A stretch of DNA of 64,000 bases, taken from contig JBPOJQ010000006.1 in the NCBI GenBank assembly GCA_052033375.1, positions 24,791-88,790 on the forward strand, written 5' to 3'. Shown piece by piece: positions 2,544-40,763 of this stretch. Position numbers and translations under genes: made by a program. Within the stretch, counting starts at the first letter, position 1; each line of letters begins with the position of its first letter. Below the pieces are notes generated by a model. It was not told the DNA's origin and ran no database searches. It saw only the letters and a program-made list of their open reading frames with translations. The DNA comes from Candidatus Magasanikiibacteriota bacterium (GTDB taxonomy: Bacteria; Patescibacteriota; Patescibacteriia; Magasanikbacterales; UBA922).

Positions 2544-3305
2544 CTATGATATACGCGACATAACAATTGCCGCAGAGATTGCGATATTCAATGATTCAGC
2601 CTTTCCTTTACCTGGGATAGTATAGCGGACATCGACAATGTCTTCAAGATCTGGTGAAAGGCCTTGTGATTCAGATCCAAACAGAAAGACTGTATGTGTT
2701 GCCTTGGGAATTGATGTGGGAAGCACTTCACCTGAGAGATCAAGCGCAGAAACAGAATAGCCAAACGAATGAGTCAGTTCGGACAATTCTTTGAACAAAT
2801 TATGTGAACGATAAATCTTTGATCGGAACATCGATCCCATCGTGCTCCGAACCACTTTCGGATTATATTCATCTACGCTATTTTCTGAAAGTATAATATT
2901 CGTAATTCCAAACCACTCTGCAGTTCGAATAATTGTGCCCAGATTTCCCGGGTCTTTAATATTATCTAGTGCAATAATAGGACCTGTAGCGATATCTGTA
3001 AGTGTATGTTCAAAGGAATCAACTATTGCAATAATACCCGAAAACGTGTCAGTTGTTTTAATTTCTCCAATATCTTTTCTACCGCAATATTCGACTGGTA
3101 TATCTGCACTTTCTGCTTTTTTAATACACGCGGCAATATGCTCCTCATCTCGTCTGGTGCCTTCTACCACAACCATCGCAACTTCCGCATAGTCGAGTGC
3201 CTCCCCCACCCCCTTGAATCCTTCAACAATAAATTCCCGAAACTCACGTCGATATTTTTTTTCTTGTAATTGATTGAGGTGTTTAACGATTTTTGGTGAG
3301 AGCAT
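2544..3305 (-). CDS. SpoU/TrmH family RNA 2'-O-methyltransferase (RlmB-like)
   Basis: Shows the SPOUT methylase core: ALDNIKDPGNLGTIIRTAEWFG ... LFGSESQGLS ... GKGKAESLNIAISAAI. The ORF extends in frame to 3413. The hydrophobic 36-aa N-terminal extension looks spurious, so the start at MLSPKIV (3305) is preferred. Confidence 0.8.
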   Translation of the reverse strand: MLSPKIVKHLNQLQEKKYRREFREFIVEGFKGVGEALDYAEVAMVVVEGTRRDEEHIAACIKKAESADIPVEYCGRKDIGEIKTTDTFSGIIAIVDSFEHTLTDIATGPIIALDNIKDPGNLGTIIRTAEWFGITNIILSENSVDEYNPKVVRSTMGSMFRSKIYRSHNLFKELSELTHSFGYSVSALDLSGEVLPTSIPKATHTVFLFGSESQGLSPDLEDIVDVRYTIPGKGKAESLNIAISAAIVMSRIS

Positions 3306-19126: not shown

Positions 19127-19279
19127 ATATGCGCACAAAAAACACCATCTCATAATATCAAAAATAAGATGCCATGTCATTACTGCTTGAAAAAATAGCT
19201 CGGTTGAGATAAGATGGCACTACATGTCATCCCAAGTGAGGGGTCACACGACGAATCGAGGGATCTCTTGATTAAAAAT

Positions 19280-20200
19280 ATGCCCACAAAAATCGCTTTT
19301 TTCGGAACTCACGAATTTGGAGCAATCATACTCAAATCACTTGCACAGGATGATCGTTTTTTAGTTGATCTTGTGATAACACAACCAGATAAACCGGTAG
19401 GTAGAAAACAAGTACTCACTCCCCCACCAGTAAAAATTTTGGCCGACACATTAGGAATTAAAACAGAACAACCAGAAAATCTCAAAAACTTCCATCTTGA
19501 AAAAGATGAATTCGACGTAGCGGTAACTGCACAGTACGGACTATTGATTCCCTCTCATGTATTTAGCGAAACAAAGCATGGATGTATAAATGTACATACC
19601 TCGCTCCTGCCAAAATATCGTGGCGCATCACCAATTCAGTCAGCACTCATTAATGGAGAAGCAGAAACTGGAGTAACTATTATGGTTATGGACGCGGGTA
19701 TGGATACGGGAGATATCCTGTCACAAGAAAAAATTACAATTAATCCAGACGAAACGTACCCCGAGCTCGATATGAAGCTTGCTAAAATAGGCTCAACACT
19801 TCTCATGAAGACCTTGCCCGATTATATTAATGGAAAAATTATTCCTCAAAAACAGGATGAATCCAAAGTGACCGTGTGCAAAAAACTTTCACGTGATGAT
19901 GGGAAAATAAATTGGAATAACACTACTGAAGAAATTTATAATCTGTATCGTGGTACAAAACCCTGGCCAGGAATCTGGACAACCCTCAATGGAGAACGAG
20001 TGAAATTGCTTGAAATTAAACCAGCACAGGAAAAATTCGATCCGGGATATATACGGTGCAAAGAAGATACTATATTAGTTGGAACCAAAAACGGTTCAAT
20101 CAAAATTGAAAAAATTCAATTTGAAGGAAAACAATCGCTCGACGTAAACGCCTGTCTGGCGGGATATTGGCTCACGCTAGATGCACAAACATGTGAATAA
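19280..20200 (+). CDS. fmt: methionyl-tRNA formyltransferase
   Basis: KIAFFGTHEFG ... HTSLLPKYRGASPIQ ... C-terminal Fmt domain. The start is taken at MPTKIAFF; the ORF starts at 19214. Confidence 0.9.
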   Translation: MPTKIAFFGTHEFGAIILKSLAQDDRFLVDLVITQPDKPVGRKQVLTPPPVKILADTLGIKTEQPENLKNFHLEKDEFDVAVTAQYGLLIPSHVFSETKHGCINVHTSLLPKYRGASPIQSALINGEAETGVTIMVMDAGMDTGDILSQEKITINPDETYPELDMKLAKIGSTLLMKTLPDYINGKIIPQKQDESKVTVCKKLSRDDGKINWNNTTEEIYNLYRGTKPWPGIWTTLNGERVKLLEIKPAQEKFDPGYIRCKEDTILVGTKNGSIKIEKIQFEGKQSLDVNACLAGYWLTLDAQTCE

Positions 20201-20202
20201 AA

Positions 20203-20229
20203 AACGAAGCCCAATACGGCTTCGTTTTA
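20203..20229 (+). terminator. intrinsic terminator after fmt (CGAAGCC-caatac-GGCTTCG + TTTT)
   Basis: Seen in the sequence. Confidence 0.6.
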
Positions 20230-20231
20230 AT

Positions 20232-20650
20232 GATAGAGTGTGGGAGGCGGACATAGCATAAAGCTACGTCGCGCCTCCATTCATCCTTGTATGGCCCGTT
20301 GGGAGCCAACGAGTGGCTGCGACCGAGGGTATACAAGGACACTCCTATCATTACATAGAAATAAAAAAGTGTCAAAAAAATCGACTCTCGTCGATACTAC
20401 TAGTACATATGGGACAAGGAGGCATGAGGGATTGCTCCCCCATGCCTCCGAGCGAATTCGTCTTATCTCGATGAATGCACGGACTAGGCAAAGTGTATAC
20501 GGTATGCCGTAAACCGATACCAGAGACAATCCCGCACGCTGCATGATACCGGCAAAAGTGACAGACGGAACAACGAACACACTACCTACTCGTGGAGTCA
20601 GGGAGAACAACAAATTCATCCAGGTTATATCACATAATGTAAAAAAAATC
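20232..20650. ncRNA. about 420-bp GC-rich, hairpin-dense non-coding island between convergent genes; candidate structured RNA of unassigned class
   Basis: Composition is strongly GC-shifted relative to the flanking CDS. Multiple extended stems are present, e.g. GGAGGCG-GACATAGC-ataaa-GCTACGTC-GCGCCTCC, GGAGGCATG...CATGCCTCC, CCTTGTAT...ATACAAGG. No ORF with an RBS. RNase P P4 (GGAAAGUCC) and tmRNA termini were looked for and not found. Confidence 0.3.
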
Positions 20651-20658
20651 AAGTGTGG

Positions 20659-21384
20659 TTAGGGTGAAACCGAATGTTTACGCAATACAATCTCTCGAGC
20701 GGCTTCGTACTTTTTCACCCGCGTACGCAAACCTGGGATCCATCGAAATGGAATGCGGTATGCAAATGAAGGTAACCAAGAACTCATAGTGCCACCCGTC
20801 GAAACCTGAAAAAGCACTTGATCTATCCATTCACCACGATTACCAGACTCAACAACAGTAAGCCACATATCCCAATCCTGAAATCGTTTCAATGATTCAT
20901 CCCACGACACTACATCTCCCACTCTCATAAGTGATGTAGTGGTAATAAAATTTTTCTTATATAATTCAGAAACTGAAAATGCCCGTCCGCGAAATAATTT
21001 TTTTCCAAATAAAAAATTAGAATAAACAAACGATATATCTTTTTGTGTATGCAACACACTATACATAGTATTGAGCATAGTGGGTCGTGCAATCACATCA
21101 GCGTCCCAAAAAATGACATACTCACCCTCGACCTCCCGAAATCCGCGATTTCTTGCAGCAGGGGCACCGTTATTTTTTTCTTGCCTGATACACACAAAGC
21201 TACGTCCCTCACGCTCATATGTAGCACGTACCCGTTCAAATGCGCTGCATACATCCTCGACACTTCCATCATCGACAATAATAATCTGCAACTGAGGATA
21301 TGTTTGCGAAACCAAAGATTCGAGAGATTTGAAAAAAATCTCTATACGATTATAAACCGGAATCACAACACTTATAAGCTCCAT
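20659..21384 (-). CDS. family 2 glycosyltransferase
   Basis: MELISVVIPVYNR ... IIIVDDGSVEDV ... DAD gives the GT-A fold DxD. Confidence 0.85.
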   Translation of the reverse strand: MELISVVIPVYNRIEIFFKSLESLVSQTYPQLQIIIVDDGSVEDVCSAFERVRATYEREGRSFVCIRQEKNNGAPAARNRGFREVEGEYVIFWDADVIARPTMLNTMYSVLHTQKDISFVYSNFLFGKKLFRGRAFSVSELYKKNFITTTSLMRVGDVVSWDESLKRFQDWDMWLTVVESGNRGEWIDQVLFQVSTGGTMSSWLPSFAYRIPFRWIPGLRTRVKKYEAAREIVLRKHSVSP

Positions 21385-22829: not shown

Positions 22830-23402
22830 TTATTTTCGAAGTGATAATTCATACACGATATGCTCAAGTTTCTGTACTGCACTTTTTGCCTGGTCGAACT
22901 TATTTCTGAGATAGCTGGTGAGATTACACTCGATAAGCTCTCCAATAATTTCGTCAGCCACCTCAGCGCACACTCTGACTGTAGTAGTATCCCCCGCAGT
23001 CGCAGCCTTAATCGCAAATCGATACAACTCGCCGGGTACATCCGTGAGACCTGCAACATATGATTCAGAATTGACCTTAATTCCCTTCACTTCTCCAATT
23101 TTGTGTGTGGTAACAAATTGGTAAAACAATTCAGCCTCAACAAATTCTTCCACTGCAGCTTTATAGGCACCCTCTTCGAGCACTCGTGAATCGCGCCCAT
23201 ACTCTTTTGAAACCTTTACCAAGAATTCACGCGATGAAGCAAGTTTTTCCTTTGCCTCGCCTACCTGATCTCGATGAAGAGCAAAAATCGCACGTTTTGC
23301 ATGAAAAAGCGCATCATTTGAATCTTTGATTACCTTTTGTCGAACTTCAGCATACGTAAGCAAATCTTTTCTAATTTTTGAGAGGAGACCGGTGTTCAGC
23401 AT
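22830..23402 (-). CDS. hypothetical protein, possible translin-family fold
   Basis: 190 aa, all-helical. Resemblance to translin is weak (SKIRKDL ... FALHR). Treat as a low-confidence family call. Confidence 0.35.
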   Translation of the reverse strand: MLNTGLLSKIRKDLLTYAEVRQKVIKDSNDALFHAKRAIFALHRDQVGEAKEKLASSREFLVKVSKEYGRDSRVLEEGAYKAAVEEFVEAELFYQFVTTHKIGEVKGIKVNSESYVAGLTDVPGELYRFAIKAATAGDTTTVRVCAEVADEIIGELIECNLTSYLRNKFDQAKSAVQKLEHIVYELSLRK

Positions 23403-29447: not shown

Positions 29448-29852
29448 CGGCACCATCGTTCTCATGGTTGCGATTCCTGCAGTGCTCATGTGCACTCGCA
29501 ATTACGAGAAACCGAAGACCATCTCAAAGAAGGGACGAAAACCGTAGAGGAGGACTCGGACCAAGGCGAAAAAAAAGCGCGTAAACAACATGCTCGAAAC
29601 CGAGAATGCTCGTGCAGATCTCGATGAGGCAGGCTTCTGACCCCCCCACTACCCCCACAAGAGGAGTAGACCACACAGCTTTCTACGAAGAAGGGTATCC
29701 GCGGGGGAACAACAAAATACCAGTTGCATCCCCCACTGTTGGACCCGAATCATATCGGATCCAGCACAAGGAGAACTATGCAACTGGTATTTTTGTATCA
29801 CGATATTGTGTTGACAGCCAATGTGCCACCCCGGATCAAAAAGTCTCCTGAG

Positions 29853-40019: not shown

Positions 40020-40090
40020 TCGGGGATCGTCTAATGGTAGGACTACAGGTTCTGGACCTGTGTATCGGGGTTCGAATCCCTGTCCCCGAG
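40020..40090 (+). tRNA. tRNA-Gln (anticodon CUG)
   Basis: Manual fold. Acceptor TCGGGGA/TCCCCGA. D-arm GTCT-AATGGTA-GGAC. Anticodon stem ACAGG/CCTGT with loop TTCTGGA (CTG at positions 34-36). T-arm CGGGG-TTCGAAT-CCCTG. Discriminator G. CCA not encoded. Confidence 0.85.
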
Positions 40091-40098
40091 CTAAAAAA

Positions 40099-40130
40099 AG
40101 AATATCGCCAATTGGATATATTCTTTTTTT
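40099..40130 (+). terminator. intrinsic terminator after tRNA-Gln (GAATAT...ATATTC + T7)
   Basis: Seen in the sequence. Confidence 0.55.
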
Positions 40131-40142
40131 AAGTCAGAGATA

Positions 40143-40261
40143 AAGAGGGATTCGAACGAGGGAAGGGTGAAACCGTGAGGTTTCACTGGACTGAGGAAAG
40201 TACACGAAAACCCGAAGGTTTTCGTGATATGTTCGAATAGCGAAGCGCCCTGTCCCCGAGC
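40143..40261 (+). repeat. tRNA-Gln 3'-end-derived element 1: starts with an inverted copy of the tRNA T-arm/3' region (GAGGGATTCGAAC) and ends with a direct copy of the tRNA 3' end (CCCTGTCCCCGAGC); internal perfect hairpins
   Basis: Direct comparison with tRNA positions 40072-40093. Internal hairpins GTGAAACC-gtgag-GGTTTCAC and CACGAAAACC-cgaa-GGTTTTCGTG. Confidence 0.6.
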
Positions 40262-40306
40262 AAAATATAAATACACCCATATAGGTGTATTTATATTTAT
40301 GATAGT

Positions 40307-40407
40307 GAGAGGGATTCGAAGGACGCGAGAGAAGCCGAGCGTGCGAGGCTTCGGTGCGCAGCGCCCCGGTACCCGAACGGAGTGAGGGGGAATCCCTGTC
40401 CCCGAGC
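40307..40407 (+). repeat. tRNA-Gln 3'-end-derived element 2: same architecture (GAGAGGGATTCGAA ... GGGGGAATCCCTGTCCCCGAGC)
   Basis: 21-nt match to the tRNA 3' end with the TTCG of the T-loop deleted. Internal hairpin GAAGCC-gagcgtgcgag-GGCTTC. Confidence 0.6.
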
Positions 40408-40418
40408 TAGTGACAGTA

Positions 40419-40763
40419 TTAATCTTTGGCGCGACGATAAATGACACCAGTGATAATCGAAGCAATTAATGCAAAGGTTATTAGTACAGTAATCCAATTT
40501 TGAGTAACCAAATACCAGATGAGTGTTGCAAACATTTTGCAAAATCCATACACAAATTGTATGGCCACATTCAGACTTTCATAGATGATGTTAAAAATAG
40601 GAATTTGTATCATTCCTGTACTATTATTAACAATAACAAAACAGCTAATACTGATAATAGCTAATAGCGCTATAATTATCCATTCAATTTTGTGCTTTTT
40701 TGAGACCATATTATCATAAAAGACGGCGTAGCCATCTCTATATTTGTGTAGTTTTGCGACCAT
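40419..40763 (-). CDS. small hypothetical membrane protein (3 TM) at the edge of the AT-rich island
   Basis: 114 aa, hydrophobic. AT-rich composition like the island. Confidence 0.4.
   Translation of the reverse strand: MVAKLHKYRDGYAVFYDNMVSKKHKIEWIIIALLAIISISCFVIVNNSTGMIQIPIFNIIYESLNVAIQFVYGFCKMFATLIWYLVTQNWITVLITFALIASIITGVIYRRAKD

Follow-up and report, generated by a model that had tools for sequence, protein, structure and literature searches.

Candidate small RNA genes in the spacer between convergent fmt and glycosyltransferase genes of a Magasanikbacteria-like bacterium

Orphan structured non-coding RNAs of bacteria, of the raiA, ROOL, GOLLD and HEARO type, are found in intergenic places, have conserved folds with compensatory changes and GNRA-type loops, and show a narrow, patchy distribution. 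Other bacterial RNAs have well-defined models: for RNase P RNA, Rfam RF00010/RF00011 and relatives capture a P1-P4 core and the conserved regions CR-I to CR-V, tmRNA consists of a tRNA-like domain (T-arm and acceptor end) plus a tag reading frame, and domain IV of SRP RNA is a GNRA-loop helix with conserved GGAA/AGCA internal loops. Candidate-phyla-radiation bacteria are uncultured organisms with tiny genomes, and to our knowledge almost nothing is known of their non-coding RNAs. The RNase P RNAs of these bacteria can be strongly diverged: they may score too low for Rfam and came to light only with a threshold of 5 bits (PMC8172020). Besides that paper, we found nothing relevant in the literature on small RNAs of the candidate phyla radiation.

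The fmt-GT2 spacer and its comparison with known RNA families

We analysed a 64-kb stretch of DNA, hereafter the window, from an uncultured candidate-phyla-radiation bacterium that is Magasanikbacteria-like. Two genes of the window converge on a non-coding spacer of 458 nt, which a sequence-only reading had described as one island of about 420 bp, rich in G+C and dense in hairpins, and had proposed to be a candidate structured RNA or a decayed foreign insert. The main features are as follows.

19214-20200, plus strand: fmt, with Formyl_trans_N and Formyl_trans_C domains (Pfam)
20201-20658: the spacer
about 20340-20199, minus strand (a weaker strand assignment than that of R): unit S, predicted to be a small RNA some 140 nt long, with two hairpins and a terminator shared with fmt
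about 20617-20374, minus strand: unit R, predicted to be a structured small RNA, about 244 nt long and made of a rod, a GNRA hairpin and a terminator, with predicted ends
20659-21384, minus strand: GT2, a family-2 glycosyltransferase gene, with a Glycos_transf_2 domain (Pfam)

The convergent arrangement is borne out by the coordinates and the Pfam domains of both neighbours. The G+C content of the spacer is 0.46-0.515 (200-nt windows, 20200-20600) against a window mean of 0.404, a shift that is real and moderate. Folding of the whole segment gave z-scores, set against dinucleotide shuffles, of -8.2 for the minus and -4.6 for the plus strand; on neither strand did any of 100 shuffles do as well. 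The three long stems named in the sequence-only reading all exist: the letters of GGAGGCGGACATAGC-ATAAA-GCTACGTCGCGCCTCC are present at 20243-20278, and inverted repeats are formed by GGAGGCATGAGGGA/TCCCCCATGCCTCC at 20418-20449 and by TCCTTGTAT/ATACAAGGA at 20284-20292 with 20331-20339, the latter enclosing nested stems. Instead of one island, however, the segment is made up of two units, both of which have a terminator as well as a promoter-like site. The proposal of a structured RNA stood for the right-hand 245 nt or so, conserved in relatives with many compensatory changes, but not for the island as a whole. Taken together, two small non-coding RNA genes probably lie in the spacer, and both would most likely be read from the minus strand, as the GT2 operon is.

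We compared the spacer with the 4227 models of Rfam 15, using the gathering threshold on the whole window and E<=10 on both strands of 20100-20800; the E-values are multiplied by the 4227 families, so that matches below about 12 bits do not appear. The gathering search of the whole window returned one tRNA only. As RNase P RNAs of the candidate phyla radiation can be diverged (PMC8172020), the lax searches were repeated on the spacers of four relatives. On both strands of all these spacers, no RNase P, 6S, SRP or tmRNA match was obtained at E<=10, and only tRNA and terminator-like noise appeared; the Infernal-type check that had been proposed for the island thus matched no family above noise. 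ARAGORN found only tRNA-Gln (40020-40091) in the window, no tmRNA or tRNA in its spacer, and nothing in the spacers of the relatives. Just downstream of this tRNA-Gln, the region 40092-40425 (z = -6.6) contains two tandem units. Each runs from AGAGGGATTCG, the 5' half of a T-arm, to CCCTGTCCCCGAG, an exact match to the 3' end of tRNA-Gln, and is interrupted by 75-95 nt of structured, G+C-rich sequence. Ahead of the first unit, and again between the two, there are hairpins bordered by A/T runs. From their sequence, these units could be integration leftovers at a tRNA gene, or tRNA-derived small RNAs.

Unit R is like the orphan structured RNAs in its intergenic place, conserved fold, compensatory changes, GNRA-type loops and narrow, patchy distribution. 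It matches no Rfam 15 model, however, is smaller than ROOL and GOLLD, and is a simple rod with a hairpin instead of a multi-junction fold; its cassette-like spacer is a further difference. With 6S RNA (ssrS) it has in common a rod of about 165 nt with closing and apical helices and internal loops between them, its own predicted transcription, a stable look, a G+C content above that of the genome, and a conserved unpaired segment at roughly a third of its length, counted from the 5' end. It differs from 6S RNA by a bulge of 10 nt opposite 1 nt in place of a large two-sided central bubble able to mimic an open promoter, by an extra 3' hairpin and by its absence from this spacer in close relatives, and 6S was rejected on the bulge and on the Rfam result. 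The likeness to RNase P RNA is that the segment is rich in G+C, structured and a few hundred nucleotides long, and belongs to a lineage with diverged RNase P RNA (PMC8172020). The RNase-P-like strings pointed out earlier do exist as letters on the plus strand, a few short strings that resemble CR-V and P9-loop motifs, but this is the non-RNA strand of R, the 5' strand of P4 is missing and no covariance model matched at E<=10. R is a rod without the P1-P4 pseudoknot core, and at this spacer it is not present in all relatives. A tmRNA was rejected on the ARAGORN and Rfam results, and an SRP RNA on the Rfam result and on the absence of the GGAAGCAGC motif from the sequence. A riboswitch or other cis-regulatory leader, which would lie in the 5' UTR of its gene and on the strand of that gene, was rejected as well: both neighbouring genes end at the spacer and no gene starts downstream of R or S. 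We file R, from its sequence, as a putative new family of an ordinary kind, the independently transcribed structured small RNA, with covariation seen and promoter and terminator predicted.

Structure, strand and transcription signals of unit R

Relatives were collected by scanning species-representative genomes with the fmt protein. This gave four close relatives with 78-85% amino acid identity, one of them labelled Candidatus Magasanikbacteria, and in all four fmt is followed by a convergent GT2 gene. GT2 homologues and their contigs widened the set to 14 distinct spacers, that of the window included, plus one empty site, and the spacers were compared by BLAST and profile search. An exact look-up of the fmt and GT2 proteins of the window returned no record. 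The parts of R are listed below.

20624-20652, minus strand: predicted promoter, with -35 TTGATT (20652-20647), a spacing of 17 nt and extended -10 TGATATAAC (20632-20624)
20454-20617, minus strand: rod domain, an imperfect rod of about 165 nt in the consensus fold
20414-20453, minus strand: hairpin 2, the GGAGGCATG...CATGCCTCC stem with a GCAA cap
20374-20395, minus strand: intrinsic terminator found by scan, stem ATCGAC/GTCGAT (20395-20380) followed by 6-7 U

The consensus fold of R was derived from five sequences of one narrow clade (the window, L001, L003, L104 and L106), with pairwise identities of 70-87%. It contains 82 pairs; the rod takes up alignment columns 14-180 and the second hairpin columns 181-222, followed by the terminator hairpin. 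Standard pairs fill 95.6% of the cells. The alignment with relatives that had been suggested as a check did reveal compensatory changes: both partners differ at 19 pairs, where column shuffles give 7.7±2.1 and none of 500 reached 19. This control overstates the significance because the five sequences are related, whereas slid controls, which retain this relatedness, were clean, with 1-5 doubly changed pairs. Maintenance of 95.6% pairing through 19 doubly changed pairs at 70-87% identity requires selection on the fold of R.

Most of the compensatory changes of R lie in hairpin 2 (helix 6), where 10 of the 18 pairs are changed on both sides. In the window, L003 and L106 this hairpin is capped by a loop of the GNRA type, GCAA or GUAA; L001 has UCAC there, and the loop of L104 is ambiguous. 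In the terminator (helix 7), the relatives keep the stem through changes on both sides of two pairs, and the stem is weaker in the window (6 bp, 3 of them G-C) than in the relatives. Neither the basal helix of the rod, GAAUUUGUU/GACGAAUUC (20617-20609 paired to 20462-20454), nor the helix that follows it varies, even at two U·G wobbles. As 14 of the 15 pairs of helices 1 and 2 never vary, these helices give no covariation evidence. The remainder of the rod has small internal loops, an apical loop of about 20 nt and a conserved 10-nt bulge, CUGUCACUUU, at 20564-20555, in which seven of ten columns are invariant.

The sequence-only reading had taken the hairpins on the plus strand. For R, the comparison gave 65 G·U cells against one A·C cell, and the share of paired cells is 95% for the minus strand and 80% for the plus strand. 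This fixes R to the minus strand, since its complement would lose 15% of the pairs. The folding energies point the same way: the minus strand reaches -94.8 kcal/mol (z -4.75), the plus strand -68.0 (z -2.5). A frameshifted protein, the refuting outcome named in the sequence-only reading, is not supported: the spacer ORFs 20281-20652 (minus), 20240-20512 (plus) and 20172-20375 (minus) have no Pfam match, the variable columns of R are distributed as 37/41/41 over the codon positions, single-nucleotide indels occur, and the R homologues share no ORF, their longest ones differing in frame and place. The lack of codon periodicity, the indels and the lack of a shared ORF indicate that R is not coding, and on these grounds and the Pfam result a protein gene or pseudogene was rejected. 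On strong comparative support, unit R is a conserved, predicted structured RNA of the minus strand.

The predicted promoter of R begins 7 nt past the GT2 stop codon, and helix 1 begins at 20617, the predicted start point. TTGA and ATGATATAAC are invariant in three homologues and the neighbouring bases vary. The pattern TTGnnn-N14-16-TGnTAnAAn precedes nearly every RNA unit in the related spacers. It was found 19 times on the GT2 strand of the 14 spacers and not at all on the fmt strand, against 0.15 expected from shuffles, the 19 matches not being independent because many of the spacers are homologous. In the 64-kb window the pattern occurs four times, no more often than a rough composition estimate, so that it is informative in context only. 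One of the matches of the window, TTGGCT...TGATACAAA (29821-29792, minus strand), is followed by a long hairpin, AAATACCAGTTGCAT ... ATGCAACTGGTATTTTGTTG, in a 470-nt gap between ORFs; the region of about 29700-29821 may be a further small RNA gene. Another recurrent element, TTATCCAC, identical to the core of a DnaA box, is located 4-10 nt upstream of the -35 in LA, X and L109-type units. It is present in the spacers of L001, L002, L108, L109, L112 and L114 and absent from that of the window; L110 has TTATCCCC at the position held by TTATCCAC elsewhere. The whole window contains five occurrences of TTATCCAC against 2.25 expected. Judging from its position, this element may be a binding site for a regulator of the spacer RNA genes.

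A second route to R has to be considered. In relatives without R, the GT2 terminator directly follows the stop codon, and none is found between GT2 and R in the window. The operon transcript may therefore also run into R where R is present, and R could also arise as a processed 3' end of that transcript.

Unit S and the changing content of the spacer

Unit S occupies the left part of the spacer, with the following parts.

20347-20375, minus strand: promoter-like site, TTGACA (20375-20370), 17 nt, TG-T-AATGAT, with the -10 at 20352-20347
20339-20284, minus strand: hairpin 1, CCUUGUAU...AUACAAGG with nested stems, which is the CCTTGTAT...ATACAAGG stem of the sequence-only reading
20278-20243, minus strand: hairpin 2, 15 bp with one bulge and a UUUAU loop
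20201-20228, both strands: predicted bidirectional intrinsic terminator AAAACGAAGCC-CAATAC-GGCTTCGTTTT, serving fmt (plus) and unit S (minus)

The terminator is a perfect 11-bp inverted repeat with an A-run and a T-run at its sides. The promoter-like site of S has 10 of 12 consensus matches and a TG before the second hexamer; its -10 is poorer than that of other units and does not fit TGnTAnAAn, and the site has the same position as the LA and LB promoters of the relatives. Unit S rests on one sequence and folds equally well on both strands (minus strand, MFE -71.7 and z -8.3; plus strand, MFE -74.4 and z -8.3). One G·U of the minus strand in hairpin 2 would be an A·C mismatch on the plus strand. 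BLAST and profile searches of the related spacers revealed no full homologue of S, and the LA profile (nhmmer) does not recognise it. By direct comparison, S and the 3' part of the LA RNAs share GGAGGCG-GAC...GUCCGCCUCC and then ACACUCU-AUC, and S occupies the place held by LA and LB in relatives. By analogy, we infer that S is a second, shorter RNA gene on the minus strand, both its strand and its activity being part of this analogy. From the shared segments, S may be a short, cut-down or degenerate unit of the LA type.

The contents of the GT2-fmt spacer vary among relatives: it can be empty, or hold R alone, R with LA, R with LB, other units or a tRNA-like gene.

R, adjoining the GT2 stop: the window, L001, L003, L104, L106, L112
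LA, about 300 nt: L001, L002, L108, L110, L112, L114
LB, about 290 nt: L003, L104, L111, L004, L107
Other units: L109, L110, L114
Empty site, 42 nt, with a single 28-nt bidirectional terminator between GT2 and fmt: L116

R is missing at this spacer in L002, L004, L107-L111, L114 and L116, and in L111 it is reduced to its last 50 nt. Because only some of the close relatives have R in this spacer, R is accessory at this site and probably not a housekeeping RNA. The empty 42-nt spacer of one relative likewise argues that the RNA genes of the spacer are accessory cassettes, so that the word insert in the sequence-only reading had some merit, even though decay is not supported for R. Directly past the GT2 stop, L004 and L107 have, in place of R, a hydrophobic ORF of 72 aa that matches no Pfam family. 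The spacer of L109 carries at 3108-3266 (plus) a tRNA gene (Rfam tRNA, 43.1 bits) with a 95-nt insert replacing the anticodon loop, too short for a group I intron; this gene was missed by ARAGORN and lies within an RNA unit whose 3' end is homologous to LA. The LA units of L001 and L112 are 93.5% identical, with nearly identical flanks around a block of about 65 nt, over the long 3' hairpin, that is replaced by an unrelated hairpin. This difference suggests, at the level of sequence, mosaic recombination within RNA genes.

The consensus fold of LA has poor global structure and a positive covariation term, and therefore only its local hairpins were used. LB folds better on the GT2 strand (-53.1 with one A·C) than on the fmt strand (-43.3 with five A·C). 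We also considered LA and LB as RNase P RNAs of the fmt strand, on account of an ACAAUAAACCCGAUAAGG string and a GGUAAC loop. This was rejected: a 5' strand of P4 and a model match are both lacking, the promoters lie on the opposite strand, and the GT2 strand gives the better fold of LB.

With nhmmer, profiles of R, LA and LB detected no extra copies in the window or in any of the loci. More distant relatives have another gene between fmt and GT2 and no island, and among the matches listed in a metagenome scan with the fmt alignment, the relatives had at most 55% identity and none carried these RNAs. BLAST of the spacer against 50,697 phage records gave no match. Pattern scans of viral contigs with R and LA motifs gave six matches, all in apparently protein-coding sequence and taken as chance, and three other patterns gave none. 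Outside the segment, the 64-kb window contains neither a repeat of it nor a long complement, the longest complement being 11-16 nt.

At least five unrelated structured RNAs take one another's place in the spacers of close strains. Their promoter and terminator modules are shared, and at the 3' end most have a long hairpin rich in G+C. As judged from the compared sequences, the spacer is a cassette site with differing structured RNAs, each with the same type of predicted promoter and a terminator. The turnover at this site would reflect either an exchange mechanism or ordinary recombination between the conserved flanks.

Possible roles of the spacer RNAs

R would be transcribed from the sigma-70-type extended -10 promoter directly upstream, with helix 1 at the predicted start. 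The transcript would fold into a rod of about 165 nt with invariant base, then a hairpin that varies by compensating changes, and end at the intrinsic terminator. We propose, tentatively, that R acts as a stable protein-bound RNA (scaffold or decoy), or a tertiary-folded one, rather than as an antisense regulator. Invariant helices, bulges and tetraloop-capped hairpins are typical sites of protein binding or tertiary contact. The near-total helicity of R, its invariant wobble helix, 10-nt bulge and tetraloop hairpin speak for this model, and so does the lack of extended complementarity elsewhere in the window. No partner gene was found to co-vary with R.

R and S might instead be base-pairing regulatory small RNAs, whose unpaired bulge, apical loop and linkers pair with mRNAs elsewhere. 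Both are promoter-terminator units of typical small RNA size, and in R the bulge CUGUCACUCU is 70% invariant and the apical loop partly conserved. However, about two thirds of the rod is paired, conservation is highest in helices and not in loops (of the rod columns, 63% of the paired and 49% of the unpaired ones are invariant), and the window contains no complement beyond 11-16 nt, targets outside the window being possible. On balance we consider a pairing role unlikely, with some real chance left to it.

The structures could also belong to the 3' UTR of the GT2 operon transcript, as stabilising hairpins or as insulators against collision with transcription of fmt. The terminator that R-lacking relatives have at the GT2 stop is missing before R, and the spacer ends in bidirectional terminators, both as expected for a 3' UTR. 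However, the relative with the empty site does with one 28-nt terminator, and a 165-nt rod with invariant helices and a bulge exceeds what termination needs. An invariant extended -10 also stands between the stop codon and helix 1, and each unit of the relatives has its own promoter. These observations make a 3' UTR element improbable.

It is very improbable that the segment is functionless DNA in decay, left over, hairpins included, from a foreign or mobile element or a former protein gene. Such an origin would agree with the patchy presence of R in close relatives, the empty site, the 50 nt of R left in L111, the degraded -10 of S and its lack of a homologue, and a G+C content above the genome mean. 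But R keeps its pairing through the doubly changed pairs described above, and the searches gave neither a protein signal, nor a match in phage records or viral contigs, nor a repeat of the segment in the rest of the window. The decayed insert of the sequence-only reading is thus unsupported, R being selected for its base pairs; for S alone, decay is possible.

The idea that R is one of the housekeeping RNAs (RNase P, 6S, SRP or tmRNA) in strongly diverged form is largely refuted and deserves next to no credence: although RNase P RNAs of the candidate phyla radiation evade Rfam cut-offs (PMC8172020), ACAGACGGAAC-like and GUAAACC strings exist on the plus strand and R is rod-shaped with about the length of 6S, neither the lax Rfam searches of the window and four relatives nor ARAGORN gave a match, the two-sided bubble is lacking, the strings are on the non-RNA strand, and its absence from this spacer in close relatives, one of which has the spacer empty, fits poorly with an essential single-copy RNA at this site.

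The operon that leads into the RNA spacer has the order Translin, Mur-ligase-like, GT2, and its first gene (22830-23402, minus strand) encodes a Translin-family protein (PF01997, 75 bits). This family is best known from eukaryotes. All relatives share the operon, including the one with the empty spacer, which makes any link between the Translin-family protein and the spacer RNAs speculative.

Beyond the model of R as a protein-bound RNA, the spacer might be a dedicated exchange site for highly expressed structured RNAs, at which at least five unrelated bodies (R, LA, LB, X and the L109 type) are swapped between strains. Such RNAs would have an RNA-based accessory role and be under pressure to diversify, as for example in a conflict with phages, a host or symbionts, and the Translin-family protein might be their partner. 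We know of no exchange site of such a kind for structured RNAs in bacteria, and offer it as a speculation with little probability behind it.

A compact genome here gives a spacer of 450-700 bp to strongly structured RNAs that have near-consensus promoter-like sites and are swapped between close strains. R is a family defined well enough for a covariance model and a survey of Patescibacteria, and its presence and absence offer a natural experiment in the search for its partner genes. Should the cassette behaviour not be general, the result is a clean annotation of two small RNA genes, and not of RNase P. If it is general, it would provide a new handle on accessory functions in these organisms.
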